A DNA stretch of 59,505 bases, counting the filler, from Basidiobolus ranarum (taxonomy: Eukaryota): the NCBI GenBank assembly GCA_040143965.1. It is 5 parts of 5 records of this genome, joined end to end, with 100 filler letters (N's around TTAATTAATTAA, not from the genome) between each part and the next. Parts side by side here need not be neighbours in the genome. Positions count along the whole stretch, not along the records: positions 47,695 to 59,505 come from JASJQH010000587.1; 4 more parts are not named here. The stretch is one strand, 5' to 3'. Every line of letters begins with the position of its first letter. Position 1 is the stretch's first letter. Position numbers and translations under genes: made by a program. The notes under the pieces were generated by a model. The model saw only the letters and a program-made list of their open reading frames with translations, had not been told where the DNA came from and searched no databases. Of this stretch, positions 5,046 through 58,058 are shown piece after piece.

Positions 5046-8000
5046 TCAATGGCCATCCATTTCATCATAAACGCTTGGATGGTGGGCGCTAATATAATCT
5101 AACATTAATTTGACATCTTCATGTCGCCCTCTAGACCGAAGCTGACTGATTAAAGTCATGGATAGTTTATAATTTGGAACTATCTTCAACTCCTCAAGTT
5201 CATGTGTAAATAAATGTTTGGCATCATAAATAGCATCATGTCGACACAACCCTTCAATGAATGAAGCACAGTTGTTGGCGCTAAGAGGAAACTTGCTGGC
5301 TTTCAGCGAGTTCCAAGTGGCTTTAAGCGCAGAAACATCCATGTTGATTCCACACGAGTCCAGAAGTACTGAGACGTGACTATCCAATAGGCTAGAATCA
5401 TATCGTTCCTTTGCTTGCTCCCAGAGTTCCATGACTTTATCGTTGCACTTGAGAAAGCTGTAGCAGTTCATAATAATAGCATACGTATAGTGATTAGGCT
5501 CAACTAAGAGCTGTTGCATCTGTTGATAATACTCGAGAGCTTGCGATATTTGGTAGCTTTTAAGATGGCCGTCAATCAAAGAGTTGAACGTTTCAACAGT
5601 TGGTTGGATATTCTCATCAATCATTTGCTTGTAAAACTCTAAGGCCTTGGTCATTCCAGAATGCTTGATGTAAGTATCAATCAGAGTATTATAAGTAAAA
5701 ACATTTGCTTTCAAATCGTAGTTCTTCAGAGAGTCATATATCTGATGAGCTTTCGGCAAATCCCCGTTTTTACCGTAGATATTGAGTAGCGTATTGAAAG
5801 TGACTACATCAGGCGCTAAGTGTGAATCGGCCAGACTATGATAGAGCGTCTCCATACGAGTAATGTTACCTGACTTCCCATACATGTTGATAAGAATATT
5901 ATATATGTTGATGTTGGGTGAAATATTATAGTCAGCCATTTGATCAAATACTTGAGAAGCTGTTTCAACTTGATCACAGCTGGCCAGAGTATTGATAAGA
6001 GACGTAAACAAGGCAATGTCTGGCTTTACTTTCCGCTTATGCATATCTTCGTATAGAGCTAAAGCTTGATCTACTGACCTATTTCTGAAGCAGCCTTCGA
6101 TGAGAGATGTATATGTCACAACATCTGGATGGATATTCTGGCATACCATATCATCAAAGATGCGTTTTGCCTCTGTCGATTTTGACTTCTTGGAGTATGC
6201 ACTAATCAACGTATTGCAAGTGATAATGTCAGCTGAAATGTTACAAGCGAGCATTTCGCGATACAACTCCACTGCCTTGGAAAGCCCATTGTTTTTGCAA
6301 TACACATCAATCAAGGTGTTATATGTGACCGCGTCAGGTTTGAGGTTGCTTGTCTTCATATCTTGCAACACCGTGACAGCACTGTCCATAGCCGAATTCT
6401 TTGCATATGCGTGGATCAATATGTTGAAGGAAACAGCATCTGGAGTTATTCCTTTTCCAAGCATCTCCGAATATATGTTCTTGACTTGATCTATATCGGA
6501 GGCCTTAGAGTATCCATTTAACAGTGTGTTGAATGTAATCAAGTTTGGTTCAATTTCTCTTTGAACCATATGAACATACATCTTATGCGCAAGATCTGGC
6601 TTCGATTCTTTTACGTAAGCATTCATGAGAGTGTTGTAAGTGATTGCATCAGGATCTATATTGTGTTCAAGCATCTCATTGAACAACAATTCAACCTTTT
6701 TCAGGTCAGAGTTCTTGGCATAGCAGTCCAACAGCTGAGTATATGTGTACACTTTGGATGCTATATTCTCACCTGTTACGTTGTGATGGACGTAGGAAAT
6801 CAAGTCCATATCTTTATGGATCTTAGCGATTGAAAGCAATATGTTGAGCGATGAAACATCTAAACTCAAGCCGCACTCTCGAGCCCATCTATAAAGAGTT
6901 AAGGCTTCACTAGAATTCCTTTTTCCTACACTTGATAACATCTCATTAATGCTAGGGAGGAATTTTTTAGATCCATCTCTCCATGCTTTTCTTGTTAATT
7001 CTTGTATTTGATCTAAGGATTTGTGCTGAATACCGAAAGCTAGAATCCCTCTCAATTGTTGGTTTGTTCGAATTGGCGCCTTCTTCTCCTTCAAATGAGT
7101 GAGCACCTCCATTCCTTGTTCATAATTGACCTCTACATGATCTTCGCTTAGTCCGTAAAGATATTCACATGATTCGTCGGTAAGGTAGCTAGATTCAGAT
7201 AGGGATCTTTTCAGTATGGTCCATACTTGATGAGCTTTCTGAGCCCCACATTCTTGTAGCGCTACATTCAAGATGGGTAATTTCCATTTATGAAAAGAGT
7301 AAGCTATTGACTCGGTGACTAGCCTTCCAGAAACCATGTTACGGCAGACGTCTATAGTTTTCCCTCTATCTCCAGCTGTACAATACAAATCAAGAAGAAT
7401 TTTGTACGTAAAGGTATTAGGTTCAAGCCCTCTGTGAACTATCTTGGTGTATACTCTCCAGGCCGAGTTGTAATCTTTGCTTTTAGCGTGGATTTGAAGT
7501 AGTGCATTGTAAGTAATGACATCGGGAGTTATGTTTCGGCTAAGCATTCCATCAAATAGTTTTTGTACTGTTTTGAGATCTCCTTCTTTGGCATACGCAT
7601 TAAGTAATATATTATACGTTATGGTATCTGGTGAATTGTTTCCCGATAGCATGGTTCTAAATAGCGAGAGGCCTTCTTGATGTTGAGAATTCCTACAATA
7701 CATGTTAATTAGGATATTAAACGTAGTTGCATTGGGATTGATCTTATGTGTCGGCATCTCCTCAAAGAGTTTAATTGCTTGGTCCTTATTCGAGCTTTTG
7801 ACTAATCCGTCGAGGAGTGTATTGAAAGTAATAACATTAGGGGATATACCATGTTGACTTAGGGTATTATACATTGCAAACGCTTTAGATATCTCCATGC
7901 GCTTTACATACGCATTGAGAAGAATATTAAACGTAATTATGTCAGGCGAAAGTTTTCGAGCACCCATCTCTTGATACAGTGCAAAAGCCTGATCTAGTTG

Positions 8001-11846: not shown

Positions 11847-11946
11847 NNNNNNNNNNNNNNNNNNNNNNNNNNNNNNNNNNNNNNNNNNNNTTAATTAATT
11901 AANNNNNNNNNNNNNNNNNNNNNNNNNNNNNNNNNNNNNNNNNNNN
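11847..11946. other. Artificial contig spacer (N44-TTAATTAATTAA-N44)
   Basis: 100-nt linker with stops in all six frames, identical at all four junctions. Confidence 0.98.
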
Positions 11947-12688
11947 ATTAATGATCCAGATAAACTTGAAGGATAATTAGCAATTATTGGATGGTACAAC
12001 ACTAATTAGATAATTCCTTAAACGGAAGATTTTATAGGCATTTTGAATTAAAGAAATACTGCAATCGGCTCAGTCCAAGGACCAGCGATTTGAAATGGGT
12101 ACAATTATACTACACCAGATTGCTAGGATCTGAACCACAAACGCCCATGCATACAATTACAAAGTACATCTCTCCTGGACTATGGCTGTCCTCATTGGTT
12201 GACTGGACTTGGAACCAACCCTGCGCCCATTCACTAGTCAACAAGTCACTCAACCCTGAAATTTATCACGATATCTGGATGCACACATGTCAGTCATAAT
12301 TTATTGAAACTCAGCAAGAATCTCCGAGAAAGGCCAAATTTGTGGGTATTTACGCTCATGTTACTGCTTAAAATTATCCGAAAATTGCTCCAATCAATCT
12401 GATGGAATTGGGGGAGAGCACTCGAAAAATTATGGACTGAAAATTCTAATGAATGAAGCTCAGATCATGTGATTATTGGAGAACACTTACCCTCTTCACT
12501 TGAAGTTTGACAACCAAACTTATGTATAGCTATTAATGGAGTTAGAAACATCTTTAAACATTCTATCATATGCGACAAAAAAAGATTACGATGCATTGAA
12601 CGAAAACCCTTTAGGCCTCGAAGATCGTATGATTAGCCCATTATCTGACGAGACCAATAGTTATGTTGCTGATAGTAGTCAAACGTTG

Positions 12689-17234: not shown

Positions 17235-20200
17235 ATGTCACTACCCAACAGTGAGCCCAAACGTTTTCACAATAATCTGGGTGATCCTTGCACTGATAGC
17301 AATTCAACAGACAGTTTTGAGGCTGGCTTAGCTCACTCAATTTCCCTAGAGTCTACCACTACTGTAAAAAATGGTACATCGGATAATTCGGACATTCTGC
17401 AGAACTCAAGTACGAAGCCATTCTTGGTAAATTGAATTCAAACCGAATCGTATAAACTAACACTTATATTCCGCTCGTCTTAGAGCAAATGGTTCCTAGA
17501 TTCTCTTCTGTATATATTGAAACACTCTCAGACGAAGGTAACCTAGACAAAAACTCTGAATCACTCTCAAGTAAATCACTTTTAAATTTGTTTGGATCAA
17601 GTATCTTTCACTTATTGTTATTCATCTTTGTAACAGATAATGAAGTTATCAAAGAGCATTCATCTGATTTAGAAACATATGAATATTATCTTCAACGATT
17701 CAATGATGAGGTATTATCAAATCTTGATTCTATAATGGAATCACCAGAAAACCATACCGAACCTCACTCTTTGGTGAAGCGAGATCGGCATCCAACCGAC
17801 CGTAGATATCCTAAACGTATTCATGCTATACCAAATAACTTGACCAACTCAATACGAAGTCAAAGACGAACCGATAGTGATGATGTTGCCGGGAATTTGA
17901 AAAATGATAACTATAGAATTGATTCATATTATTCCGAGATATTCACTCGTCTACCATCCATGTGGATATTATTGACCCACTGCGCAACCTTTTACGCTCC
18001 TACTTTGATGTTGTCTTGTTGTGGTATGAGTGATATATCAATTGATTTTAAATCTCTCTTATTTATCTTTTGTGTACTAAATGATGTCTCGTTGGCTACT
18101 ATAGGCATGAAAACTTCAGAAATTCGTCAAGCTTGGAGAGAGAAGATGGCATTATGTACCATCATTTTTATACTTTGTTTAGCAGTAGGCTTTCTTACTT
18201 TTGGTTTCCAACAAGTTTTCTGTGGCTTCTCCGGCAGCGTGGGCCGTGTCAAGCAAGGAACTATAACCAATGAGGACATAATAATTCACGGTAAAGTGTA
18301 CCAACTAAATGGATTCGTACACCCAGGAATCGTAAATGGACTTCCTACAAGTGTAGATCCATTTAGTTCCGCTGGAGGACAGGATCTTTCATTTTTGTTC
18401 CAGAGTCTTACTGGAAATTGTCAAGATATACTACAAGCAGACTCTAGGATGACGAATTCTAGTGGAAATATAGAGAATTATTACCCTTGTATAACACGAA
18501 ATGCAAGCACACCGGTGGATCCTCAACGTAATCCTGAGAAAGTTGGATGTCACCCAACTCTTATGGCTCTGAAGCGATCGAACAATGGACGGACAATCAT
18601 AACCAAGTGCCTATTCCGACCACAAGGTAAAGGAGAATAATTAAATTTCTTAATTTCACTAACTAATAATATTTGTTAATTTTAAGGAATGCTTCAATTC
18701 CAAAACTAACCTCAGGATTCTTACCGCAAATCAGTCGATATTCTACTCCTCCGCCTATCTACGATTTAGTATCAAAGCGTTCTAGCTCTCATTTCTCTCA
18801 AAACAATAGTGAATATCGGGTTTATCGTGCAAAAGGCTCTGATCATTGTTCTACGAGTGAGGAATCCGTTCATTCCCCGGAATCCTCAGCCCGATCCCAC
18901 TCTCGTACCTCTACAATGGGACCATATTTACATGTACCGCCTCATCCTCCACCCTATAGTTTCCAGCCATTTAATTTCCCATTAGCGTATACGATTCTGT
19001 TAGTGACTTGCTATTCTGAAGGAGAAGAAGGTATACGAGCTACACTGGATTCACTGGCACAAACTGACTATCCAACTTCACATAAGCTGATTGTTGTGAT
19101 TGCTGATGGGGTGATAGTGGGAGCGGGGAACGAGATGTCAACACCGGATATATGTCTAACCATGATGAAGGATTTTGTAATTCCTCCAAACAAGGTTCAG
19201 CCATATTCCTACATCGCTATAGCTGATGGGACTAGACGACATAATATGGCCAAGATTTATGCAGGCTATTATAAATTTAATGAGCAAGTCGAGTCGGTGG
19301 AAAAGGCACCAAAAGTACCAATGATCCTGATTTCCAAATGTGGTACTCCAGAAGAACAGTCCCAACCGAAATCGGGAAATCGTGGAAAGAGAGATGGTCA
19401 AATCATATTGATGTCTTTTCTACAACATGTAATGTTTGATGATCGAATGACTGAAATGGAATACGAATTATTTAACGCGATGTGGAGTGTAACCGGAATT
19501 AGTCCGGATCATTTTGAGATTTTGTTGATGGTAGATGCCGATACGAAAGTGTACCCGGATTCCCTCACTCGAATGGTCTCTTGTATGGTCAGAGATCCAC
19601 AGATTATGGGATTGTGCGGTGAAACAAAAATCGCAAACAAACGAGACTCTTGGGTAACTATGATTCAGGTATTTGAATATTACATCTCGCATCATCTGAG
19701 CAAAGCCTTTGAATCGATCTTTGGTGGCGTAACCTGCCTACCCGGATGCTTTTGCATGTATCGTATCAAAGCTCCCAAAGGGCCGACGGATTTTTGGGTT
19801 CCAGTATTAGCAAGTCCAAATATCGTTGAAGAATACAGCGAAAATGTGATCGACACACTTCATAAGAAAAATCTACTTCTGCTAGGAGAAGACCGGTATC
19901 TTACCACACTGATGCTTCGTACGTTTCCCAAGCGTAAGATGATATTTGTTCCACAAGCGGTTTGCAAAACGGTTGTCCCTGACACATTCAAGATATTACT
20001 ATCCCAGCGACGTCGTTGGATTAACTCTACGATTCATAATCTATTAGAGTTGGTCATGGTTGGGGATTTATGCGGCACATTTTGCTTTTCAATGCAATTT
20101 GTGGTGTTTATGGAGTTGGTTGGTACGGTAGTATTACCAGCGGCCATTTGCTTTACTCTTTACTTGGTCATCATCTCATTATTTACCTTTCCGGTTCCGA

Positions 20201-20640
20201 TTATACCTTTGATATTACTGGCAATGATTCTCGGTTTACCAGCGATTCTTATATTGATGACAACGCGTAAAGTGGTATACGTCGGCTGGATGTTGATCTA
20301 CCTATCTTCATTATTTATATGGAACTTCATCTTACCCGTCTATGCATTTTGGCATTTTGATGATTTCAGCTGGGGTCAAACTCGACAAGTAGCTGGTGAA
20401 AAAAAGACGACGAATCCTGAGGATAAGGATGGTGAATTTGATAGTTCGCAAATCGTTATGAAACGATGGTCCGAATTTGAGAAAGAGAAACGTCAACGAA
20501 TGGATCTATGGCTAAATCATGTCAGATGCAGTACAACTTCTATCGCAAAAGGATACGAATGGTCCAACTTAGGATATAATATACCCAGTCAATTAGCCAA
20601 AATGAACTTATCTTTAGTAGAGTCCGAGGCTAATTGTTAG
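17235..20640 (+). CDS. Class IV (Chs3-like) chitin synthase with apparent internal deletion and frameshift near 18551-18571; catalytic exon intact
   Basis: [11 protein letters not shown], cyt-b5-like [93 protein letters not shown]. The upstream frame does not splice in frame to the catalytic exon (see findings). Confidence 0.9.
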
Positions 20641-23765: not shown

Positions 23766-23865
23766 NNNNNNNNNNNNNNNNNNNNNNNNNNNNNNNNNNN
23801 NNNNNNNNNTTAATTAATTAANNNNNNNNNNNNNNNNNNNNNNNNNNNNNNNNNNNNNNNNNNNN
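23766..23865. other. Artificial contig spacer
   Basis: N44-TTAATTAATTAA-N44. Confidence 0.98.
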
Positions 23866-26800
23866 AGCCATTGCCACTGAAGCACCAATAGCAAGTGGGG
23901 CATATATCTCGAACACCGAAGCGTCAAAAGTGTAGTTGGCGAATTGCAGGACTGAATCCTTGGCCGTAAGCTGATATTTTTGGTGGATTGCCTGAATAAA
24001 GGTAACCACTGCCGAATGCTCCACCATTACTCCCTTCGGTGTTCCGGTAGAACCTGACGTATATAATACGTAGCACAAATTAGTATTAGCAATTCCTTTG
24101 ACATTTGGATTAGTAGCTGAGTATTCGCCATATCCACTCATAGCATGGTCAATTAAAATTAAAGTGAGTTCTTCAAACACAACCTTATGTGAGCAAGTTG
24201 TTATCACGATGGAGGCACCCGTTTCTTTTTGTACGAATTTGGAACGCTCAACTGGGCTATTTGGATCTATGGGTACGTAAGCGCCACCAGCTTTAAGAAC
24301 AGCCAACATGGCTACAATCATCTCAACCGACTTTTCAAGGTATAATAGCACCATTGACTCTGGTCTTACTCCTTGGGTCATCAAATAATGGGCTAACTGG
24401 TTTGATTGCTTGTTTAGGTCGTCGTAGGTTAGATGGTAGTTACTTTCATATTGAATAGCAATGTTGTTAGGCGTGTCAGCTGCCTGTTTTTCAAATAAGT
24501 GGTGTAAACATTCAACTGTGATATCAACCTGGTTGCTACTTGTTGAGAACGATCTGATTATACTGCTTTCAACATTGGAGATGTGTGGAATATGAGCAAT
24601 TGGTGATGCATCATCAACACCGACGATACTGGCAATTGTGGTATCCAAGCGATCCAAAAGGCTACCCGCTAGTTCGTCTGTCAGTGTAGCATTGTAAAAA
24701 TCTAGTCGAAAAGCAAATTCATCATCTTCAATCCAAGCATTAAGGCACAATCTGTACTCAGTGGGCTCTACTATTCTATCCAGCTGGAAAGTTACCATTT
24801 GTTTTGCGTCTTCTTTCTCAGACAATTGAAAGTTGAGAATTGCATCAAAATTGACTTGGCCATCATTATGTCTACACCATTGTCTGATCTGTCTTAAACC
24901 ACAATTTTCGTATGGTATCCGAGTTACCATACTTTGATGCAGAGATTGCAGCCAACCCATTACTGTTGTGTCCGCATCATACTGAATCCTTAATGGAGTC
25001 GTATTAATGCATGGACCAACAACCTGATTGATGTATTTCATTGATATATTGCGACCATTGGTGAGGACTCCATATACAAAGTCATCTTTTCCATAATAAG
25101 GTTGTAGTATTAATCCCCAAGATGCTTGCAAAATAGTGAGCAAAGTTACACCTGTCTTTTTTGAAAACTCTTTTACCATCTGCGTAGAGATTCGGGATCT
25201 GCTAAATATTTGATGGTGTTCTATCTTTGCATTCATGTCTCCGAGTTTTGGAAAAACACAGGAGTCCACACCAGCTAGGTACGTTGACCAATACTCTTCT
25301 CCTGCTGTGTTGTTGAAAGATTCGCTCTCTTTAATGCAGTATGATATGTAATCTTTGTATGGGACGACAGCTGGTCTTGGCGTATTGTTGTAGACAGCTT
25401 CTAAATAAGCTATAGTTATTTTATCAGACCAACCATCGTTGATTGCATGATGTCGGCTGATTATCATCTTATCCTTTTCGCCATGCAGCAAGCATAATCG
25501 TATGTTGGGCTTGCCTAGTGGAAATCCTTGAGCCACATCTTCTTCTAAGTATTGGTTTAGTACAATATCAACGTCTTTGGTCTCCGTAAATATATGGTTG
25601 AAATCTATATGAAAATGTCGTAGTACCACTTGAAGATATGTTCCTGATGTTGATGAGAGCAAGTCGTTGATAAATACTGTTCGCAATATTGAAAGATCAT
25701 TAATTGTGGCTCTCCAGGCAGATATCAACTGCTCAGAGTCCACTCCATCTGGAAGAGTATATACATCTTGTACATGATAGGAAGAAGCAGAGCGGGCATT
25801 ACCGGCGATCAAGCCTTCCTGCATCACGGAACAAGGATATATGTCTTCTATGTTTAGAACAAACTCGTCACCATATTTTGCTCCAATTTCTTCCATGAAT
25901 TCGTTCAACTGATGGGCATTTAGGTTGAGCAATGGGATATCAGAGACAGTCATCGCTCTTTTCTCCTTGTTGGCACTATTATGGATGGCCTCCATTAAAT
26001 CTCTCTTCCAGGACTGTAGCCACTTATTGATCTGGCCCTCACGATGAAGTTCACTGCTGTAGGATATCGAGGCACACAGATTGTCACGCTGCATAGTAAC
26101 TTCAACTTCTATGGCATTCATTCTTCTCCATTTAGGACCAATCATATTCAAGTCAAAAGCATACCGATCGTCAATTTGTTGAAACAGAGAACCGCCCTTC
26201 TCCAAATGCTGGAATCGTCCGAAATAGTTGAAACCCACCTGAAAGCTGTCATTACCAAATCGTGATGATAACTCTTCATTAAGGTAACGGAGGAGTCCAT
26301 AATCCAAACCACGGTTAGGAATGGTTCGACGAGTGTCTTTTGTCTGCTTCAATATATCCATGATGGAATCACCTTGATTACTTACAATGGTAACTGGATA
26401 GATGGAAGTGAACCAGCCTATTGTTCGGGAAATATCAATGGAATCATCCCACGGTTCACGTCCGTGGCCTTCGGTCGCAAAGGTAATGGAATGCGCATTG
26501 AATGTGTCACAATAGGAGGTGGCGAGGGTTGAAAGCATAAAGTCCACCGCCTCTGTTCCATACGCGTCATTGCTTCGGCCGAACAAGAGAGTTGTATATT
26601 CACTATTCAAAGTAAAAGACAGAGTGTTCACCGTTTCCATAGTATTTAAGGGCAGCTTGAATACATCAATATCTAATGGTTCAATCGGTGCCTGTTGTGG
26701 CCAGCTTTTGACAGTCAAGGACTCAGCGTGCTTCTGTAAAAGCCTGCTCCACTTTCTGAATGACAATGTTTTGTCGGATAATGTTTGGCCATTAAGTAAT

Positions 26801-29800
26801 TTCTCAAGATCTTCCCAAATAATACGCCATGAAACTAGATCGATTATGTAGTGATGGATAGTCATGAATAACAACTGTTCACCAGATGGTAGATCATAGA
26901 TTATAAATGAAGACACTGGCCCTGTTTCGATGTTGAGACTTCGCTGCACTTGCAATATGCTTGACTGTAACTGCTCAATACCTGATACCTGGTAATGCTG
27001 AACCTCAAAATTAACTTCCTCATTGGAAGCTAGCCATTGTCTCCAGCGACCTTGTTCATATGTGAATCGAGTCCTCAACATATCATGATGACTTGTAAGC
27101 TCACTTAGTGCTCTCTCCAGTGCGGCAATCTCTATGGGATGCTTGACACTTACTAACCACGACAAATGGAAATGGTGGACATCGGACTGTGTAACTCCAA
27201 AAAACTGATGTTGAATTGGAGTAAATGGAATATCAGCCCCTTCGTCCTGACCTTCTTCTATGCTCTGCTTTTCTAGTGCAAGTGTTGTAAACTGAGCGTA
27301 GTTTACAAGTTGACGAATGGTTGGGTGTTGCAATATGCTCTGTACAGATATTTCTATTCCTTTGTGACGACACTGGGCCGATATTTGAATAGCAGAAATA
27401 GAATCACCACCCAAATGATAGAAAGAATCCCCAGTACCTATGGAAGACTTTTCAACGTTGAGCACATCTCCCCATACCTCTTGCAGTAACTTTTCCATTG
27501 GAGAGATTGGTGTGTCTTTGGTCTCTTTCGCATCTTGAATAAAGTCATTATTCATATACAACAGCTTCAGTGTCTTCAAGTCTGTTTTACCGCTTGTATT
27601 GATGGGCATTCGTGTCAGAGGTATCCATACTGTGGGCACCATATATGGTGGAAGTTGCTTTCGAACGGACTCTTGTATACGGTTTATCTCAGATCTGTTA
27701 CCCATTTCAAGAACTGAAACTGGCTCTTTCTCGGAAGTTTTATTTTTGATGGTTAAGAAAGCCACAAGGACCTTACTTCTCTTCGATGTCTTCGACTTTC
27801 GATTCAATAACTTGACTGATACACGATTGACTTCTGGAGATAGACTTAGTATATGTTCTATTTCTTCAATTTCGATTCTTAAACCGTTCAACTTGACTTG
27901 GTTATCTTTGCGGCCAAGAATGGTGATGGAGCCGTCAGGATTAAATCTTCCTAAATCCCCTGATCTGTATAAACGTTCGCCATGAGTATAAAGGGAACTG
28001 ACAAAGCTTTTTTCAGTCAAATCAGGTCTATTTAAATATCCTCGAGCAAGTTGAGGCCCGCCAATACAAAGTTCCCCCACTGCTCCCAATGGCACCAGCT
28101 CCAGTCTATCATTCAGGATTAAAACTTTACTACGGCCAATCGGCCACCCAATATTGGTACAAGATGTTGATTGCTGCACTGATTCTTTTATGATGGTGTA
28201 CACTGCAGTTTCAGTTGGACCGTAACCATTATGCAACTTGACTTTGGAAGCCCAAGCGTCACGTACGAATTTAGTGAGCATCTCACCTCCTTGCTGAAGC
28301 AGTTTGAGTGTTGGTACTGAGTTTGGGTCCAGTAAGGAAGCAACAGTGGTGGTTAACTGTGCCGCAGTAACCTCCATAAGGCACATCATTCCAGCTAAAT
28401 TCGTGAGCAAATTATTCTTGGAAGCTAAACATATGCATGATCCGGTTATCAGATTCACGAATAGATCAAGTATGGATGCGTCGAAAGTATAGTTGGCAAA
28501 CTGGAGAAACCGATCATTCTGGGCTAAATTGAGAATCTTTTTGTGAGCAGTGACGTAATTAACAACAGAACGATGTTCTAGCATAACTCCTTTGGGTTTT
28601 CCCGTCGAACCTGAGGTGAAGATCAGGTAGCAGAGATTTGAGGATTTCAAGCCTGAAATGACAGGGTTTGATTCGGAACAGCAGTAATCAGAGCCATCCA
28701 CAATCAGCAATTGAATAGTTTGCCACTCGGCAAACATACCCTTTAAACTGCTGGTGGTGATACAAACTCTAGCTTTCGTATCTCCTAAGATGAAATCAAT
28801 TCGTTCTTTTGGGTATTCTGGATCGAGGGGCACATAAGCGGCTCCTGCTTTGAGAACAGCCAGGATAGCGACCACCATATTAGTTGATTTCTCGATGCAC
28901 AATGGTACCAAATCGTCTGGTTGTACACCCAGTTGAATAAGAGAATGAGCAAGTATATTAGCCCGTTTGTTCATCTCTGCATATGTGACCGATTCCTTAT
29001 CCTCAAATTGAAGCGCAATATTGTCTGGTGTACTTTTTACTTGCTCCTCAATAAAATGATGAATACAACTATCATCAAGTTCTTGGACATATTCTAGCTT
29101 TCCTTGCTGCCATTCAGTCAAGAATAAAGATTTTTCATTTTCTGGAGTCCAATTTAGGCTATCCAATGGAGCATCAAGGTTACTAAGTAATGTTTTAGCT
29201 ACATAAATGAACTGCTCAGTAAATAGAACTCCTCGGTTTTGTGAAAGGTGGCTGTTTGCGAAGGTCATCCGAACATCAATACCATCTTCACTTATGTACC
29301 CTTGTAGGCAAATCGCAAACTATAGTGGAATGAATAAGTATTCATAATTGATAACTCATACATTTAGAATATATTACCTTGAGTTGGTGGAGATCTATTG
29401 ATCTTTCTTGATCCGAGAATATGACGCAGGTATTGAAACCACTTGCATCTTGAACACTTGATTCAGCAGTGTCCTGATGATTAACTTTTTGATTAAAGGC
29501 TAGATTCTTTAGCCAACTGCTAACATGGAGTTTCTCGATTTCGTGATCATAAGTTGACTGGAAGATCTGCAAGTCCTTTAACATCAATTTTGAATGTTGT
29601 TGGGTAGGAAGGCCTATACCAAATGTAATATCTGGACTTCCAGTATATAGATTCAGCATAATCACCCAGGCCGCGTATAGCAGAGATCTCTCGATACCAG
29701 CAACCCCTTTCAAAGCAGCATGATGGTAAACATGGCTCAAATCAAGTATCTTCAGTTTACTGGTATGGAAGTCAATTGTATTAGTGTTTTCTTCGAATTC

Positions 29801-33515: not shown

Positions 33516-33720
33516 AGCTCACTAAACGTGTTAACAAACAAAGAGTTAACGGAAACGATCTTGCAGTACATATGCACTCATGTCAACACAGGTCAACAAA
33601 CACAACAAAACCAGATCATTAACTGTCATGGTTTGGTGACTGATATTTCCGAATGATTATTGTTTGAGTTGTGGTTAAATACTAGGTCAGGCATTTGTAA
33701 ACCTCAGTTACATTTTGGTG

Positions 33721-35199
33721 ATGAAGTCTACTTGTAATTCATGTGATGTGATTTCGTTTTTGTCTATCGCATTCTGTTCCATAGCATATGTATTTTTCCA
33801 TTTGAGCTTACCACCGTTACCCCTTGATACTATTGTATCTAATAGCACGCAGAATCTCGTTTTTACTCGCTGCTTAAAGAAAATTAATGCTGAGATTATT
33901 TTCCCTGATGATTCGCTACGCTACGATATGGCTAGATTAGGGAAAAGGACTCGAGTGGTTAATGCCCCAATTGCCATTGCCTATGCTCGGTCAGATAACG
34001 ATGTACAGGAACTTGTCAAGTGCTCAGTCGCGGCAGGGATTGCAGTGACACCCCGCAGTGGAGGCCACAGCTTTGAATCGTTTTCAACTACTACGGGAAC
34101 GTTCGTTGTGGATATATCTAACATGAATAAGTTTGTTGCCGCTAGTGGAAATACGGCCATTGTTCAAGCGGGTATCGCCTTGAAAGATTTGTATTTAGCA
34201 ATCCACGCAAGTAATCGGGAATTAACGTTTCCATCGGGAACCTGTCCTACAGTTGGTTTGGGAGGAATAGTGAGTTCTGGAGGATATGGAACAGTGGCAA
34301 GAAATTTTGGTATTTCTGCAGATTATATCCAATCCGCAACTGTCGTTAACTATAAAGCTGAAATTATCCAAGCAAGTGAGGATCAGAATCCAGATCTATT
34401 CTGGGCGTTACGAGGCGGAGGTGGAGGAACATTCGGCTTAGTTCTTTCATATACTTTAAAACTGGTGAAGACTCCTTTAAACAGCATGTTTCATATCACC
34501 TGGACCCCACTAAATGCGATCAAGGTGTTAAAACAATGGCAACACTGGGCACCTAAGGCAACAGAGAAACTTACCATGTACTTCCAATATCTTCCTTTCT
34601 ATATTCGCATCTATGGTCACTTTTTGGGAACCATGGAGGAACTAGACGAAGTATTGAAGGAAAGTGGACTATTAGATATTGGCGTCCCTTTCTTACACAA
34701 AGCCTCCTGCTCAGCTCTCGGAGCTAAAACCTTTTTCAACTTCGATGATTCTTGTCAAGATCATACTTCTATTTCTACGTGGGCTTATAAAGCAGTAACT
34801 GCCCATGAAAAATCGTATGCTAGAAGCTTGTTTTTCACACAAGAATTACCCGACCATGTATTGGATGTCAACCTTGAAGCGTTTGGGGGAATCTTTGCTG
34901 AGCAATCTACGTCAATGACGCCATTTCCGCATAGACAAGGAATTTTGTTTCAACTAGAGTTTGCCATTTATGTCACTGGTGCACCGTTGGTTGACGAACT
35001 TGCTCATAACTGGAGCAATGACATGTTTAGGATTCTCTCGCCATATTCTAATGGAGGGTCATATCATGGTTATGTATCTCTAGATCTACAAGATCCCTTA
35101 AAGGCTTATTTTGGTAACAATGTTGATCGTCTTATCGACATCAAGCGAAAATATGACCCATTGAATGTTTTCCGGAATCCGCAGAGCATCCAACCTTAG
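33721..35199 (+). CDS. Berberine-bridge-enzyme-like FAD-linked oxidase with N-terminal signal/anchor
   Basis: RSGGHSFE (covalent-FAD His), GTCPTVGLGG (second covalent Cys), GGYG, DLFWALRGGGGGTFG, PFPHR, YFGNNVDRLIDIKRKYDPLNVFRNPQSI (BBE domain). Intronless. Confidence 0.92.
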   Translation: MKSTCNSCDVISFLSIAFCSIAYVFFHLSLPPLPLDTIVSNSTQNLVFTRCLKKINAEIIFPDDSLRYDMARLGKRTRVVNAPIAIAYARSDNDVQELVKCSVAAGIAVTPRSGGHSFESFSTTTGTFVVDISNMNKFVAASGNTAIVQAGIALKDLYLAIHASNRELTFPSGTCPTVGLGGIVSSGGYGTVARNFGISADYIQSATVVNYKAEIIQASEDQNPDLFWALRGGGGGTFGLVLSYTLKLVKTPLNSMFHITWTPLNAIKVLKQWQHWAPKATEKLTMYFQYLPFYIRIYGHFLGTMEELDEVLKESGLLDIGVPFLHKASCSALGAKTFFNFDDSCQDHTSISTWAYKAVTAHEKSYARSLFFTQELPDHVLDVNLEAFGGIFAEQSTSMTPFPHRQGILFQLEFAIYVTGAPLVDELAHNWSNDMFRILSPYSNGGSYHGYVSLDLQDPLKAYFGNNVDRLIDIKRKYDPLNVFRNPQSIQP

Positions 35200-35680: not shown

Positions 35681-35780
35681 NNNNNNNNNNNNNNNNNNNN
35701 NNNNNNNNNNNNNNNNNNNNNNNNTTAATTAATTAANNNNNNNNNNNNNNNNNNNNNNNNNNNNNNNNNNNNNNNNNNNN
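35681..35780. other. Artificial contig spacer
   Basis: N44-TTAATTAATTAA-N44. Confidence 0.98.
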
Positions 35781-47594: not shown

Positions 47595-47694
47595 NNNNNN
47601 NNNNNNNNNNNNNNNNNNNNNNNNNNNNNNNNNNNNNNTTAATTAATTAANNNNNNNNNNNNNNNNNNNNNNNNNNNNNNNNNNNNNNNNNNNN
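47595..47694. other. Artificial contig spacer
   Basis: N44-TTAATTAATTAA-N44. Confidence 0.98.
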
Positions 47695-52374: not shown

Positions 52375-54606
52375 CTACGCATAGTTTTCTTGGCGTAACA
52401 CTCTTCGGAAAAATTCATTTGTGAACGTGGTATCTGACACTTCATTGGAGTCGCACGCTTGAAGATTCCACCACTTCAAGTCAGAGCGTTTGCCATGGCT
52501 ATTGGGCTTCGGCAAATCTCCAGTTTGCGCAAGCCACGGCTCAGCTTTTACTTGCGAGTATAGGATTGCCTCTACAGGAGGCAGAATACGGGTCGGTATT
52601 TTATCTATATCCAAGCGTTTTCGCTTTTGCTTAGGAACGAACACATCTTTGTGATCTTGATACAAGGATGTAGACATGGCAAGTGCATATTGGAGGTCCT
52701 CATCGGATTCTGGTTTGATTTTACGAGCCTTACGAATAGTAATATTTGGCAAGGGTTGAATCACGACATCCTCCGTGAAATCTTCATCGGCCTCCAGAAA
52801 AGCAACCTGAAACTCCCGAGATCTGCGTTGCTTCAGGTCTTCCTGGACATGCTCAAACGATTCTTCAGGGCTCTCCGCGACCCAACTTTGTTCCATACCA
52901 AGTTGATTCATTTGGATAATTAGCTGACTATACGTTAGTTTTCGTAATTTAGCACAACATTTTAGATGAAAAACTCTGGCTTCTATAGTGGTCCACTTTG
53001 CAAGCCAAGGATTTTGACAACTTGGGCAATTCGGAATATTCAAAAGGCAATGGATACCCTTATTATCCGGCTGACTCGTTGTTACAATTGCACCTTGTTG
53101 TCTTATAACGTTCGGTTCTGTTTTGATAGGCTTTTCTTGCTGTTTACCATCCAGGCAAGTATTAATATGTTGACTTTTTCGATATTCAGTCATGTAGGAT
53201 ATGTTTTCTTGACAAATCATACACTTTTCCACATAGTTGCACTTGGAAGTTATACTTGCCTGGCTTTCGCCCAAGGTGAGCATCGATGGGGAACTCTGAG
53301 TGGCAACATCAAGGCACCTATTCACATGATTTTCCTTGGCTTGAACACTTTGGAATTCCAATAACGAGCGTTGACAAATAGGACAGACATCAGTATTTTG
53401 CTCTTGGATTTCCCGGTCATCAATAGAGCGTAGTTCGCCGGTTATCCGGTCCATTTCTGCGTCATTGTTGCTCACAATGGGTGCTGGAGAAATTGAATTT
53501 AGTATTTCCTTGTCTCTCTGATGAGATCCAGAACTCTCTTCGTCTGTTAGATTTAGTTCACTTGAGTCATTTTTTGTATCAATTTGGGGTGATCTATTCA
53601 GAGGGAGAAGCAGAGAGGATTCATCTAGGCTTTCATAAGCTTCTTTTTGAATCAAACCAGAATAAGGCTGAGAGGTCTCTTCTAGGTCATGATGAATACA
53701 CGTCGAGACCTTCACTTCAGAAAGAGGTGTAGGCAACGTAGCCGTAGGTTCGTTACTCAATATTTCAACTGTATGGGAAATTAGCTCTTGCGATATTTGC
53801 TCGTCAGAGTTGATTAGTTCATCATCAAGTGGATGTTGCATTGGAGTAGGAATCACGGATTCCAAATTGCATTCATCATTTACTTGAATAGGGCTAACAC
53901 CTGGTGGTATCAATGCAGATTCAACTTCGCTTTCCTGACTAATCGAGGGATCGTCTGAAAAATAGCTGAATTTGGATAGTTGAGAGGTTGGAGTTTGTGG
54001 TATTACTTCATGCTCGTCGGCCAGTAGCCTAGATGCAGAAATAAACCCATGGGTTACTGTGGCTTCATCTTGACTCAAAAATCGTTCCCATTTAGACTCT
54101 TTGCTTACAACCTCGCATCGCTCCCCTGTATCTTCTTGTTTGGGGCTAAGTGAAACCTTAGGAAGCATGGGATTACGGTTATTGGTACTATCAGTATGTA
54201 AAGATTTAAGTTTTAACCGTCGAGATTTTAAGGAAGTGGTTGTGGAACCAAAGTACTTCGATACCAGAGAAGCACTTGTATCAACAGTCATTTCTGGTGG
54301 TATCTCTACCTTCTCGTTTACTGTCACTTTTTTCCGTTGAATTTGCCTTGAGTTTGGATAAGTATCACTCCGGTCAAGGGTACCAACTATTGAAAACAAA
54401 GGTTTGTTTACTTCCTCTTTTTCCACTGAAGTCGCTTTCGTAACCTTCCTTCTCCTAGTTCCTAAGCATTTTTTGTTAGACTTAATCTCTCTTCTTGGCT
54501 TGACCTCAGAATTCTCTTTGTTTTCAAGGAGTTTTTGCTTCGTTTTCTGATATTTCGATTTGGTTGTGATTTTTAATTCGCGAAAGTCATCTTGGTCGTC
54601 GTCCAT
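52375..54606 (-). CDS. DNA-repair scaffold resembling the N-terminal half of SLX4 (three UBZ4-like zinc fingers + MLR-like region)
   Basis: CPICQ..ENHVNRCLD, CMICQ..SQHINTCLD, CPSCQ..RVFHLKCCAK, then DEDLQYALAMSTSL, KRKR..PTRILPP, WWNLQA. The long N-terminal region is low-complexity. Confidence 0.68.
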   Translation of the reverse strand: MDDDQDDFRELKITTKSKYQKTKQKLLENKENSEVKPRREIKSNKKCLGTRRRKVTKATSVEKEEVNKPLFSIVGTLDRSDTYPNSRQIQRKKVTVNEKVEIPPEMTVDTSASLVSKYFGSTTTSLKSRRLKLKSLHTDSTNNRNPMLPKVSLSPKQEDTGERCEVVSKESKWERFLSQDEATVTHGFISASRLLADEHEVIPQTPTSQLSKFSYFSDDPSISQESEVESALIPPGVSPIQVNDECNLESVIPTPMQHPLDDELINSDEQISQELISHTVEILSNEPTATLPTPLSEVKVSTCIHHDLEETSQPYSGLIQKEAYESLDESSLLLPLNRSPQIDTKNDSSELNLTDEESSGSHQRDKEILNSISPAPIVSNNDAEMDRITGELRSIDDREIQEQNTDVCPICQRSLLEFQSVQAKENHVNRCLDVATQSSPSMLTLGESQASITSKCNYVEKCMICQENISYMTEYRKSQHINTCLDGKQQEKPIKTEPNVIRQQGAIVTTSQPDNKGIHCLLNIPNCPSCQNPWLAKWTTIEARVFHLKCCAKLRKLTYSQLIIQMNQLGMEQSWVAESPEESFEHVQEDLKQRRSREFQVAFLEADEDFTEDVVIQPLPNITIRKARKIKPESDEDLQYALAMSTSLYQDHKDVFVPKQKRKRLDIDKIPTRILPPVEAILYSQVKAEPWLAQTGDLPKPNSHGKRSDLKWWNLQACDSNEVSDTTFTNEFFRRVLRQENYA

Positions 54607-55073
54607 GACAAGACATCTCTAGAACACCTAAAGGTTAGTAAAAGTCTTAACTAAACCCCTTTGTTTTCTTACAAATGATATTCGATGAGCCGAATCAGGT
54701 GATCCATCCAAAATGAAAATTTCATTGGATAAACAATTGTTTTCCTAAGGTGAAGAGTGAATTTCCTTTTTAGTGAGAGCGCTTAGGACTGCGCAATAAT
54801 GAATGATGAGTTTGTTTACTTTTGGTGATAGAATCACATTGAAAAATATTCGGTTCATTGGATGAATTTTAATCCATATTTTGAGTATCTTGGTCTCTGT
54901 TACGTTTGACCTGTTCCCATTCAGTTTATACGAAAAGAAGGAGAGGGAAGAATCCAGTATGCAATTGACATTTATTCCTCAAATCGTAATCAAAAAACCA
55001 ATAAACGATATTCAACGGATCAATTGGATCCACAACACTAGGTGATACCAGAGCACCGAAGGAATAAAGCTAT

Positions 55074-55529
55074 TCAATCATGGTAAATAAACTGAGCTCC
55101 ATTGATATTGAAGTCGGCGAAGGTTTTAACATGAGGTCCTTTGTTGAAGTTGAAATTACTGGTGTACACTGTTCCGTCACCGTTGATCTTCTCAACTATA
55201 GCAACATGTCCTTGAGATCCGGTCCCTTGGGTGTAGCTGGGTAAGACAATAATCGATGGAACTCTTGGCTCATTGGAGATTTCCCACCCAGGATATCTAC
55301 GTGCATTGTTCGCCCACGCCTCGGCGTTGCCTGCCCATTCAGTATGATATCCAGTTAGTTGGTAATATCTAGCATCCGCCCAATCGGTGCATTGTCCGTT
55401 TCCAAAGCGAAATTCTAGTGAATATTCTCGCGCTTCTAAATGGGACTTGAAACCAAAAGGTAAAGGGTTTACGAAACTTGCTAAAAGAGAAAGAACGAAT
55501 ATTAGGAGTTGGATATTAAGCAAAGCCAT
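55074..55529 (-). CDS. Secreted CHAP-domain (Cys/His-dependent amidohydrolase/peptidase) protein, putative peptidoglycan hydrolase
   Basis: Signal peptide, short propeptide ending LEAR, then GQCTDWA, GNAEAW, EPRVPSIIV, GHVAIVE, VYTSNFN and C-terminal FIY. Intronless. TATATAA upstream on the minus strand (55649-55655). Confidence 0.9.
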   Translation of the reverse strand: MALLNIQLLIFVLSLLASFVNPLPFGFKSHLEAREYSLEFRFGNGQCTDWADARYYQLTGYHTEWAGNAEAWANNARRYPGWEISNEPRVPSIIVLPSYTQGTGSQGHVAIVEKINGDGTVYTSNFNFNKGPHVKTFADFNINGAQFIYHD

Positions 55530-57389
55530 TATAACAGTAAAAAGCTCGATTGAAAAATGAAAATGTAGCAGTCGAATTGAATTCGCAAAAGTGACTGAGA
55601 AATATATGTTTTTGAAAATGTTGATGTGTGGTTGACATTTCTCATCGCTTATATACTTTGTTTCCTACTTGGCGATTTAATCTAGAGGCAAAAAAGGGGC
55701 TCTCTGATACGAGAATAAAAAAGACACATCCATCAAAATATTTCAACCATAGTACTAATAAAAACCAAAAATGCTCATATTTCATGTGCTGTAATAGAAC
55801 ACAAGGGATTTTAGGCAAAGCCGACTTTTCAATGCGTTCTCCTCCTCCCCCTGGTTGGGATACTATCCTGATTTAGAGTAAGAGGATACTTTTCCATAAT
55901 AAAGTCCTAAACTGGGTGAAGTTACTCAGATGCAATGGCCTATGCAAAAAAGCAATTTGTGTCGTGAGCTACAGGTCATTTTAATTTTTTGTAACGCCAA
56001 AGATGAACCTTGAAGCTTCAACTGGCCAACTCTGCAAACCAAATACAACGATAACAAGAATCTTGACTTAGGGCATCAGTAAAGCAAATGCTCAAAGTAT
56101 TTGTTATGTGTGCCCGCATTTAATAGCATTATCTTACAACTCTAGCAAAGAGTAAGTTTGCTAGATATGAAAGGTATTCGGGGCATAATGCAACATGTAT
56201 TTTCATGGTGCATGGGTTGGATGAACAATAACTTGACATTCTGTTGCGCCTCGACTCAATACAAGGGAGTATTTGAAGATACTAATACTATATGTAGACA
56301 GAGAAACACTGAAATGAACATCCCTACCTCGGAATAGGTAAGCAACATCCCTTCTGATAATTAATGAACTGAGTTGATTAAATTTTTATTGTAATATAAT
56401 ATAATGCCACTCTGTAGCACAGGACTCGTCCATTGATCAGGTCATATATATGGAAGAATTGTACCAATCAGATAATTGGCAAATAGAGGGAGAATTGTAT
56501 TCTTTATTAACAATTGTCTCATTCAATGGAGTAAAATGCATGAGGGGAGAAATTTGGTAGCCAGCCACTATCCTTAGGGCCAAATAATGCACCTTCTCAC
56601 CGCGAAAGTCACAATGATCCCGACAAAAACTCATTGAAAGGTAGCTACTGATATGCGCACTACACTGATTATAGCAAACAGTAAGCGAAATTGCCTATGT
56701 TTTGATGAAATGTTGGAAATCAAGCGGGTCATCTTTGCTCTTTGCTAACAGTATCTGGATTCCTCTGCTGCCTTTATTGTAATCAGTTGGCTATTCATTT
56801 GATGTAGAGGTGTTATACTTGTTCGTATCAGCAAATCTGATACCGTATGAAAAGATTTTCTACCTTGCGGTAGGGCTCATGCTGCACCTAAATCGGTCAC
56901 TTCAACTCTGCATCACACAATGTAGTAGAGAATATTATCTCCATACTTCTGCATTGATTGCTACATATTGGTCATGTTGAAATTCGTTGGAAGCTGCATA
57001 TCGGAGTCGATCAGATTCAATGGTATTACATAGATTTATTCATATTCCTAACCCTAAGATCATATTCGCAATCACATAATATGTGCGGCTCTAGGGTATA
57101 CCTTTAGCCTGTAATTTGGGAATCAATGTTCGGGTTCAAGCAAATTTGACTGGGTTCAAGGAGTCGAGTATTATCAAAGAGAGTTAATTCCCTTGTGTCT
57201 AATGACCAACTAGGATGTACATTTACCAATCGTGGCTGGTAGTAAGTCATCACAGCTGTAAATTATTAAATTACGAAACACGGATCAAATCTATTCAAGA
57301 GGTTCGAATGAAAAGTTCCTAGTTCTCTATGTCATTAACTATGTATGAAATTAGAAGAAAAGGAATATCAACCAATTGAACAGTACTTA

Positions 57390-58058
57390 TCATATTTGCA
57401 TTTCACAACCGGATTGTTCCGTTGATTTCTTCCACGTAGCTGCTTCACGCTTCAAGAGTTTCCACCTTTTCTGACAGGATTCGCCAGATTTTCCTTTAAC
57501 TAATTTCGATATTTCGGCCCAATTATCAAACCCAACATTTTGTATTGCTTTAACAAGTAGCTCATCTAAAGCGAGATTCCACACATCTGAAGTAACGCTC
57601 GGCCCTAATCCCTGGAAATATCTGTACCTTAGCTGTCCACCAGTATGAGTTGGGAAACCCGCTTGTTGAATGAGGCTCCAAGAAAATCCATACTTCTTTA
57701 CCAGTTTTAGGAGCCGTTCGTCTTCCTTAGGGGTCCACTTGTGAAAAGCAGAAGAGGTTTTGTTGTTATCCTCTATTGCTACCGATTTGATATCCGGATT
57801 ACTTAAAGAAGGTTTTAATTTGACCGTGTAATGATAGCGTAGGGTTTGAAGCTTACGATGGGGAAACTCTTTGGCAACTGATGCCCACTTTTCCCCAAGC
57901 TTAGCCACGCTTTGTATTAATCGTTCGTTTTCTTCTGGTGTCCAATTTAAAATTCGTACTACAGGAGAGGAGGAGAAAAATCTACTACCAGTTCTAGTTA
58001 GATTTACAGCCGAGTGAGGATGAATCTTCGACAGGAAATTTGACCGGGACACCAACAT
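57390..58058 (-). CDS. Three-repeat Myb/SANT-like protein with mitochondrial-type presequence
   Basis: WTPEENERL..KWASVA..LRYHY; WTPKEDERL..SWSLI..LRYRY; WNLALDELL..NWAEIS..CQKRW. First 35 aa are R/S/L-rich with no acidic residues and contain RFFSSS. Confidence 0.88.
   Translation of the reverse strand: MLVSRSNFLSKIHPHSAVNLTRTGSRFFSSSPVVRILNWTPEENERLIQSVAKLGEKWASVAKEFPHRKLQTLRYHYTVKLKPSLSNPDIKSVAIEDNNKTSSAFHKWTPKEDERLLKLVKKYGFSWSLIQQAGFPTHTGGQLRYRYFQGLGPSVTSDVWNLALDELLVKAIQNVGFDNWAEISKLVKGKSGESCQKRWKLLKREAATWKKSTEQSGCEMQI

Follow-up and report, generated by a model that had tools for sequence, protein, structure and literature searches.

Ticks and mites possess Dae2, a papain-like peptidoglycan amidase acquired from bacteria that acts as a secreted antibacterial factor and with which ticks fight bacteria of the skin (bioRxiv 10.1101/2020.04.10.036376). 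A secreted CHAP family of seven genes has been described for the oomycete Saprolegnia parasitica and attributed by the authors to bacterial transfer (PMC3681718), and for the fungus Basidiobolus meristosporus CBS 931.73, 806 candidates for bacterial gene transfer are given, the majority of them intronless and of fungal-like composition, with 'GNS bacteria' among the listed best-match sources (PMC7466969). In this work, we analyzed a CHAP-domain gene of Basidiobolus ranarum (assembly GCA_040143965.1) located in a stretch of 59,505 nucleotides (nt), filler included, that is referred to here as the window; it consists of five parts joined end to end, the last of which (JASJQH010000587.1) carries the gene. 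The CHAP open reading frame (ORF) is a real, intact nuclear fungal gene and one member of a large fungal family, not a private acquisition of this locus. That identity, integrity, fungal residence and bacterial ancestry all hold jointly appears to us very likely, and we consider it probable, taking the explanation as a whole, that an old transfer from a Ktedonobacteria-like bacterium gave rise to a secreted, single-domain CHAP enzyme acting on bacterial peptidoglycan.

Among the eukaryotic systems, Dae2 differs from this gene in its donor, the type VI toxin Tae2, in its arthropod recipient, in being present in one or a few copies and in that its function has been experimentally shown, whereas that of the fungal CHAP protein is predicted. 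The Saprolegnia family is alike in being a multi-copy, secreted eukaryotic CHAP family and differs in belonging to an oomycete and in that no donor is named for it (PMC3681718); no Saprolegnia protein appeared among the named matches to the window protein that were looked up. The closest bacterial counterparts are membrane-anchored CHAP proteins of the Ktedonobacteria, such as that of Dictyobacter vulcani (WP_151755742.1, 313 amino acids (aa)), which shares 53% identity with residues 36-150 of the window protein (E 4.9e-28). These relatives are annotated as 'CHAP domain-containing protein' or 'surface antigen', and they have in common with the fungal protein the motifs GQCT.WA..RY, PSIIVL, GHVA.VE.IN.DG and TSN.N, the last with Asn or Asp at the third relay position; as in the Basidiobolus family, their genes are multi-copy and in tandem. 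They differ in being about double the length, with an N-terminal region of approximately 100 residues, a hydrophobic anchor inside the chain and a C-terminal domain, whereas the window protein consists solely of a signal-like leader and the domain, joined by a linker of 17 residues. The Ktedonobacteria proteins presumably remodel the cell wall of their own bacteria. The secreted staphylococcal CHAP proteins (2K3A; SAOUHSC_02979, 5T1Q), with 27-28% identity, and the phage lysins LysK and LysGH15 belong to the same Pfam family and fold, but have Glu at the position of Asn125, and the window protein lacks the SH3b, LysM or amidase partner domains. Within Basidiobolus, two orthologues (85% and 69% identity) have the length and layout of the window protein, and most of about 35 other C51 paralogues are longer (170-320 aa), a stretch of low complexity linking their leader to the domain.

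What was already known is the bulk transfer of bacterial genes into Basidiobolus and the public automatic annotation 'Peptidase C51 domain-containing'. In the texts searched, we found no paper joining CHAP to Basidiobolus or, among the 15 papers listed of 439 that matched, to Entomophthoromycotina, nor 'peptidase C51' to fungi. Neither CHAP nor peptidoglycan is mentioned in the main texts of PMC7466969, PMC11291939 and PMC11105155; tables S4 and S5 of PMC7466969, which list the horizontal gene transfer (HGT) candidates, may well include these genes. In the texts searched, the donor, the ancestry in common with the Entomophthorales and the extent to which the family expanded in Basidiobolus appear to be undescribed; the picture at the level of the family is new, the principle is not.

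Results

The initial annotation, made from the sequence alone, had described an intronless ORF of 151 aa with a LEAR motif and a CHAP domain in which the catalytic Cys and His are intact and Asn takes the place of Glu at the third catalytic position. All of this was borne out. The ORF is the sole one of such size at the locus, its frame is uninterrupted from ATG to TGA, and the annotated orthologues (150 and 148 aa) align with it from Met1. In the translation LEAR lies at residues 31-34, as had been indicated (the equivalents in the orthologues read LKAR and RQAR), and is followed by GQC47T, GH108VA and S124-N125-F126-N127; Cys47 is the only cysteine of the protein. The start codon has A at -3 and G at +4, a good context that is a consensus match and no proof of use. 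The HMMER comparison with PF05257, which had been suggested as a check, gave a clear match far beyond chance: CHAP was the single Pfam-A family found on the ORF (60.5 bits against a cut-off of 26, E 2.2e-16, residues 43-125), the match covering profile positions 7-79 of 81 and the profile envelope beginning at residue 38.

Sequence searches of the PDB retrieved the CHAP proteins of Staphylococcus saprophyticus (2k3a, E 4.9e-8) and Staphylococcus aureus (5t1q, E 6.7e-8), with Cys47 and His108 in register with both and SN125FN under the SEMN of 2k3a. The AlphaFold2 model, built on 104 aligned sequences, reached a mean predicted local distance difference test score (pLDDT) of 93.0 and a predicted template-modelling score of 0.77; it contains a leader helix (residues 3-18), a helix that starts at Cys47 (47-59) and a strand that carries His108 (107-115), and the linker block 21-30 has a mean pLDDT of 69. 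The best Foldseek match in the PDB was 5t1q_B (E 3.4e-7, root-mean-square deviation of 1.6 A over 111 columns, template-modelling score of 0.65 by query). Nineteen PDB entries matched at E <= 0.001, and those listed (among them 5t1q, phi812 9euf/9eum, 2k3a, LysGH15 4olk, LysK 4ct3/4csh and PcsB 4cgk) are staphylococcal, streptococcal or phage CHAP cell-wall hydrolases, the exception being 2lrj, whose title is that of a staphyloxanthin biosynthesis protein. Glutathionylspermidine (Gsp) and trypanothione amidases (3a2z, 2io7, 2vob) matched far more weakly (E 1e-2, 12-13% identity).

Residue conservation was counted over 289 aligned CHAP domains, 43 fungal and 246 other. Cys is present at position 47 in 42/43 fungal and 241/246 other rows (283/289 in all), His at position 108 in 42/43 and 245/246 (287/289 in all), and Asn at position 127 in 43/43 and 239/246. 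At position 125, Asn is found in 39/43 fungal rows and in 185 of the 246 others, Asp being found in 29 further ones of these 246, so that Asn at the third catalytic position is no fungal peculiarity. Because Asn predominates in the bacterial relatives as well, Asn125 can be taken as an inherited trait of the subfamily and not as decay. The catalytic set of papain is Cys-His-Asn, and the paper on the 2K3A structure reportedly uses the name 'Cys-His-Glu-Asn relay'. From sequence and model, we regard the protein as a CHAP-type cysteine amidase/peptidase with the predicted relay Cys47-His108-Asn125/Asn127. A further residue, Glu113 (codon 55191-55193; GHVAIVE, five residues past His108), occurs in 42/43 fungal and 238/246 other rows and is thus conserved to the level of the catalytic residues; the usual Cys-His-Glu/Asn description gives it no role.

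The architecture of the fungal proteins departs from that of the bacterial ones. Among 121 full-length relatives of bacterial type (median length 313 aa), a hydrophobic segment of 19 aa precedes the domain in 89, its median start being residue 119, and in 94 the CHAP domain ends 15 residues or fewer from the C-terminus; this layout would be that of a membrane-anchored protein with its CHAP domain outside the cell. In the fungal family, 34 of 45 members have their hydrophobic segment right at the N-terminus, where a eukaryotic signal peptide would be, and most of the remaining 11 sequences are probably incomplete gene models or models with a wrong start. The minimal form is that of the window protein, with leader (1-20), 17-residue linker and domain (38-151); its leader is hydrophobic over residues 6-20, with a Kyte-Doolittle 11-aa maximum of 2.79 at residue 6. 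The proposal that a signal-like leader stands in for the bacterial membrane anchor is well matched by these counts (N-terminal in 34/45 fungal versus internal in 89/121 bacterial-type proteins).

An exhaustive HMMER search of 1.84 billion representative sequences gave 840 matches at E <= 1e-3, 245 at E <= 1e-10 and 12 at E <= 1e-30, the best 150 of the 840 being listed. All 12 matches of the strictest class are from Basidiobolus, and the next named ones are Dictyobacter vulcani (E 4.9e-28, 53% identity), Dictyobacter sp. and metagenome-assembled genomes (MAGs) of Ktedonobacteraceae or Chloroflexota. A scan of prokaryotes with one genome per species (185,579 species) returned 375 relatives; the best 79 of these loci come from 62 records named as Ktedonobacteria taxa and 17 MAGs labelled 'Chloroflexia' or 'Chloroflexota', the 62 including the genera Dictyobacter, Thermogemmatispora, Ktedonobacter, Ktedonospora, Ktedonosporobacter, Thermosporothrix and Tengunoibacter in addition to family- and order-level MAGs. 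In the ESM Atlas, two Chloroflexota clusters head the list of structural neighbours. The likeness to Ktedonobacteria CHAP proteins, put forward in the initial annotation, is therefore upheld by HMMER, the genome scan, the ESM Atlas and the trees described below, all of which place Ktedonobacteria/Chloroflexota nearest, and with it the bacterial ancestry of the gene, to which search, scan and tree affinity all speak. In the Ktedonobacteria themselves, CHAP genes occur in tandem arrays of at least three (L051/L082/L097/L103, at G001:C1:1391937-1394805; also at L019, L003 and L035), and whole genomes gave 11 CHAP matches in Dictyobacter vulcani, 14 in Ktedonobacter racemifer and 4 in Thermogemmatispora carboxidivorans. 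This tandem, multi-copy arrangement indicates that the family expanded in the donor group too.

A FastTree phylogeny of the 289 CHAP domains joined all 36 Basidiobolus rows and P0048, a B. meristosporus protein, in one clade (support 98). Its neighbour clade (90) consists of six long-branch rows: P0111, a cluster with a Conidiobolus coronatus protein, P0116 and P0157 of Entomophthora muscae, P0052 of Massospora cicadina, and the metagenomic proteins P0121 and P0112. A smaller set of 95 rows and 116 columns was analyzed with IQ-TREE (LG+C20+F+G4, posterior mean site frequency approach). It comprised 19 Basidiobolus rows, seven Entomophthorales-type rows (which are, or group with, Conidiobolus, Entomophthora and Massospora), Ktedonobacteria loci, every CHAP paralogue from three Ktedonobacteria genomes, and more distant CHAP rows. 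The 26 fungal rows were recovered as one clan with support of 100/97, Basidiobolus with 99/91 and the window protein together with its orthologues P0001 (B. meristosporus) and P0002 (B. ranarum) with 100/99. With the root placed on the most distant paralogues, on which the placement depends, the fungal clan falls inside a 39-row clade with 13 Dictyobacter-type rows (85/98), itself inside a 70-row clade that holds 44 Ktedonobacteria rows (88/79); seven more Ktedonobacteria paralogues are in the next outer group. The maximum-likelihood tree that had been proposed as a check on a bacterial origin hence groups the fungal clan with the Ktedonobacteria, the choice between nested and sister placement being taken up in the Discussion.

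Taken together, the trees point to a single fungal origin from a donor that would lie in or beside the Ktedonobacteria radiation. Since one clan holds the Basidiobolus proteins and those of Conidiobolus, Entomophthora and Massospora, the transfer would be old and followed by vertical descent within these zygomycete lineages, and it would predate the split between Basidiobolus and the Entomophthorales if those lineages are sisters. Two metagenomic proteins, P0216 (386 aa) and P0049 (396 aa), branch just outside the Ktedonobacteria/fungal clade; their precomputed Pfam lists combine CHAP with SLT (PF01464), that of P0216 adding the C-type lysozyme family PF00062, and they would be proteins with several lytic domains.

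The gene belongs to a large family in Basidiobolus. A word-indexed search retrieved 33 proteins of near length, 31 of which are Basidiobolus proteins annotated as 'Peptidase C51 domain-containing', B. meristosporus CBS 931.73 contributing 18 and B. ranarum 13. The closest protein is K493DRAFT_297132 of B. meristosporus (85% identity, 150 aa) and the second closest K7432_005503 of B. ranarum (69%, 148 aa), encoded on a 204-kb and a 21-kb contig, respectively, of two other Basidiobolus assemblies. A count of paralogues, another check that had been proposed, gave at least 20 distinct clusters at 90% identity in B. meristosporus and at least 17 in B. ranarum, so this is no lone acquisition; these counts refer to the two related public genomes and not to the genome of the window itself. 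Part of the family is in tandem, as indicated by consecutive locus tags (K7432_005993-005995, 012408-012409 and 005503-005504) and by shared contigs. In the window, tblastn with its own protein and six paralogues detected no second copy or pseudogene remnant (other matches at E >= 0.75), within a span that extends 55 kb from the gene in one direction and 4 kb in the opposite one. In each of the two related genomes, the orthologue shares its contig with another CHAP paralogue of greater length (P0002/P0191 and P0001/P0015), which in B. ranarum has the adjacent locus tag (K7432_005503/005504), which suggests a loss here or a gain there. Four Basidiobolus paralogues (P0048, P0103, P0030 and P0036) have annotated models without GQCT or GHVA, P0048 showing an unrelated stretch at the expected position of the Cys helix; they may be mis-modelled genes or decaying copies.

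Discussion

To our knowledge, fungi have no peptidoglycan. The family and fold of the protein, its kept active site, its secretion-type leader and the long retention and expansion of the gene in fungi without this substrate argue for peptidoglycan hydrolysis outside the cell, and we lean towards a secreted enzyme that breaks an amide or peptide linkage of peptidoglycan and helps the fungus to defend itself, compete or feed where bacteria abound. In the course of events that we propose, the lineage of Basidiobolus and the Entomophthorales would have received a CHAP gene in one old transfer from Ktedonobacteria-like Chloroflexota. A eukaryotic signal leader would then have taken the place of the anchor-bearing N-terminal part of the bacterial protein, and the family would have multiplied in Basidiobolus, partly in tandem. 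The secreted enzyme would attack peptidoglycan at amide or peptide bonds of its stem peptide or cross-bridge, and this cleavage may kill or digest bacteria in the gut, dung and soil habitats of the fungus. The present data show that the gene is intact, to which family and fold its product belongs, that the catalytic residues are conserved, that the setting is fungal, and also the phylogenetic affinity and the change in architecture; it is for the secretion, expression, substrate and biological role of the protein that we infer rather than observe. A conserved, putatively secreted and multiplied hydrolase family in organisms that do not contain peptidoglycan points to enzymatic warfare on, or feeding on, bacteria.

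Several of our results weigh against this explanation. As regards the enzyme, (i) its third relay residue is Asn125 where the best-studied CHAP enzymes have Glu, (ii) no LysM, SH3b or other Pfam domain was found beside CHAP in the protein, which leaves it with no wall-binding module, (iii) the mature CHAP part has an acidic isoelectric point (pI) of 5.5-5.9, many characterised lysins being basic and modular, and (iv) the n-region of the leader has no basic residue, nor is there a clear small-residue cleavage site. As regards its ancestry, (v) a quick tree placed the fungi as sister to the 44 Ktedonobacteria rows, and this placement was not rejected by the approximately unbiased (AU) test (delta lnL 3.71, p 0.392), (vi) most metagenomic rows of the tree, including ten outer ones, carry no taxon name, (vii) the genome scan leans to close relatives because its motif patterns were derived from the CHAP subfamily itself, (viii) the restriction of named eukaryotic matches to Basidiobolus, Conidiobolus, Entomophthora and Massospora holds among the best 150 of the 840 matches, other fungi not having been exhaustively tested, and (ix) a profile search headed by the Conidiobolus protein and aimed at other fungal lineages was saturated at 7999 candidates scored and gave 33 matches, which is weak on absence elsewhere.

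The alternative that stands up best is that the gene is horizontally derived and intact but that its substrate is something other than peptidoglycan: a different compound with a gamma-glutamyl or amide linkage, proteins of a host or an insect, or wall proteins of the fungus itself. The expansion of the family would then reflect something besides antibacterial action. The CHAP family does include the Gsp and trypanothione amidases, which are among the weaker Foldseek matches (3a2z, 2io7, 2vob); the missing wall-binding module, the acidic pI and the long branch leading to the fungal clan (0.41 in the quick tree) would all be compatible with a shift in substrate, and the Entomophthorales are insect pathogens, for which other targets are conceivable. 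However, the best matches by sequence and by fold are extracellular cell-wall hydrolases, the similarity to Gsp amidases is much lower, as stated above, Glu113, Ser124 and Asn127 are kept together with the catalytic residues as in the bacterial relatives, and a secreted location would ill suit an amidase of thiol conjugates. We consider this alternative unlikely, and action on bacterial peptidoglycan remains the reading that we prefer.

It is less probable still that the fungal genes go back to several transfers, either by separate uptake in Basidiobolus and the Entomophthorales from close bacteria or by passage from fungus to fungus. Because the NCBI taxonomy ranks Basidiobolus and the Entomophthorales in separate phyla, their sisterhood is not guaranteed, and the Entomophthorales-type rows are long branches of the kind whose joining the tree tool flags. 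Against this, the fungal rows form a single clan (100/97) that contains no bacterial row in either the 289-row or the 95-row tree, and within it the Basidiobolus rows (99/91) and the remaining seven keep apart from each other, the pattern to be expected of vertical descent.

That there was no transfer at all, and that an old CHAP gene of eukaryotes or fungi came down to these lineages by vertical descent while most other fungi lost it, we regard as very improbable. The occurrence of the family in two deep zygomycete lineages would fit such a history, and the survey of other fungi, which covered the best 150 of the 840 matches, leaves room for it; however, identity to Ktedonobacteria proteins is approximately 50%, the fungal clan is placed within or beside the radiation of their paralogues, the named eukaryotic matches among those listed belong to the four genera given above, and the substrate class is absent from fungi. 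The gene is also intronless, as are 61% of the Basidiobolus HGT candidates versus 36% of other genes (PMC7466969). An assembly artefact, in which a bacterial contaminant read or contig was joined into a fungal scaffold, would explain a domain of bacterial type but is hardly credible, since the sequence is continuous between eukaryotic genes, its composition is that of its neighbours, it carries a eukaryote-type leader and promoter-like elements, and identity of approximately 50% to any bacterium compares with 85% and 69% to genes in two other Basidiobolus assemblies; on the grounds of neighbours, composition and orthologues, we rejected contamination.

The old, donor-identified transfer that we favor would be common to two deep fungal lineages and datable, and it may serve as a relative time marker. 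The fungi concerned are gut- and insect-associated, and interactions between Basidiobolus and bacteria are reportedly found in herptile guts, for which the CHAP family provides a testable molecular link. The very small, single-domain enzymes with a single cysteine are, in addition, candidates for lysin engineering. It is tempting to go further and speculate that one ancient transfer from mycelial soil Ktedonobacteria to a common ancestor of Basidiobolus and the Entomophthorales, with the enzyme then adapted for secretion, left gut-dwelling Basidiobolus with an arsenal of dozens of bacteriolytic enzymes of diverged specificities that shape the surrounding bacterial community; this larger scenario is attractive but tentative, and we would not quite give it even chances. 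If it is true, the arsenal would parallel in fungi what the Dae system is in ticks and could yield new lysins, with the 151-aa form as its minimal, module-free version.

Genomic setting and additional observations

The coordinates of the CHAP gene and its features are collected in Table 1.

Table 1 Features of the CHAP locus, in positions of the window
Feature	Position	Strand	Basis
CHAP coding sequence, complete, single exon, 151 codons + TGA	55074..55529	-	ORF list, sequence, orthologues alignable from Met1
Signal-peptide-like hydrophobic leader, residues 1-20, MALLNIQLLIFVLSLLASFV	55470..55529	-	Kyte-Doolittle profile, modelled helix 3-18
Short linker with LEAR (31-34), residues 21-37, candidate propeptide	55419..55469	-	Lower pLDDT, outside CHAP envelope
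CHAP catalytic domain (PF05257 / peptidase C51), residues 38-151	55077..55418	-	Pfam, PDB sequence matches, AlphaFold2, Foldseek
Cys47 codon TGC, predicted nucleophile	55389..55391	-	Aligned with Cys of GQCT in 2k3a, 5t1q
His108 codon CAT, predicted general base	55206..55208	-	Aligned with GHVA of 2k3a, 5t1q
Asn125-Phe126-Asn127 codons, predicted relay positions three and four	55149..55157	-	Under E-M-N of 2k3a
TATATAA, TATA-box-like, 126 nt upstream of ATG	55649..55655	-	Pattern search, direct reading; consensus match only
AATAAA, polyadenylation-signal-like, 98 nt downstream of stop	54971..54976	-	Pattern search, direct reading; consensus match only

The gene had been placed between an SLX4-like and a Myb gene of similar composition. 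The Myb neighbour stands, as a protein of 222 aa with three repeats (57390..58058, minus strand), but the SLX4-like label found no confirmation in Pfam: the other neighbour, a 743-aa ORF (52375..54606, minus strand) with several CxxC...H..C motifs, gave no Slx4 match at E <= 0.01 and had only a UIM (residues 635-645), below the cut-off. The likeness in composition holds for both neighbours, with a GC content and a GC content at third codon positions of 0.432 and 0.395 in the CHAP ORF, 0.416 and 0.372 in the 743-aa ORF, and 0.419 and 0.377 in the Myb gene.

Elsewhere, the window encodes a chitin synthase (18670-20637, PF03142, E 1.7e-277), a pentatricopeptide repeat protein, a Forkhead domain, a peroxiredoxin, a BBE-type oxidase and a fragment of a nonribosomal peptide synthetase (NRPS). 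The only Ns are eight runs of 44 bases, the nearest to the CHAP ORF ending at 47694; they form four pairs approximately 11.9 kb apart (11847-11946, 23766-23865, 35681-35780 and 47595-47694), a regular spacing that looks like deliberate masking rather than assembly gaps. The NRPS module (23821..29319, minus strand) is a frame of 1833 aa with AMP-binding, PP-binding and Condensation domains, which begins directly after the N pair 23766-23865 and may be longer; frequent transfer from bacteria has been reported for NRPS genes of Basidiobolus (PMC7466969). The BBE-type oxidase, predicted to be dependent on flavin adenine dinucleotide (33679..35196, plus strand), lies near this NRPS frame.

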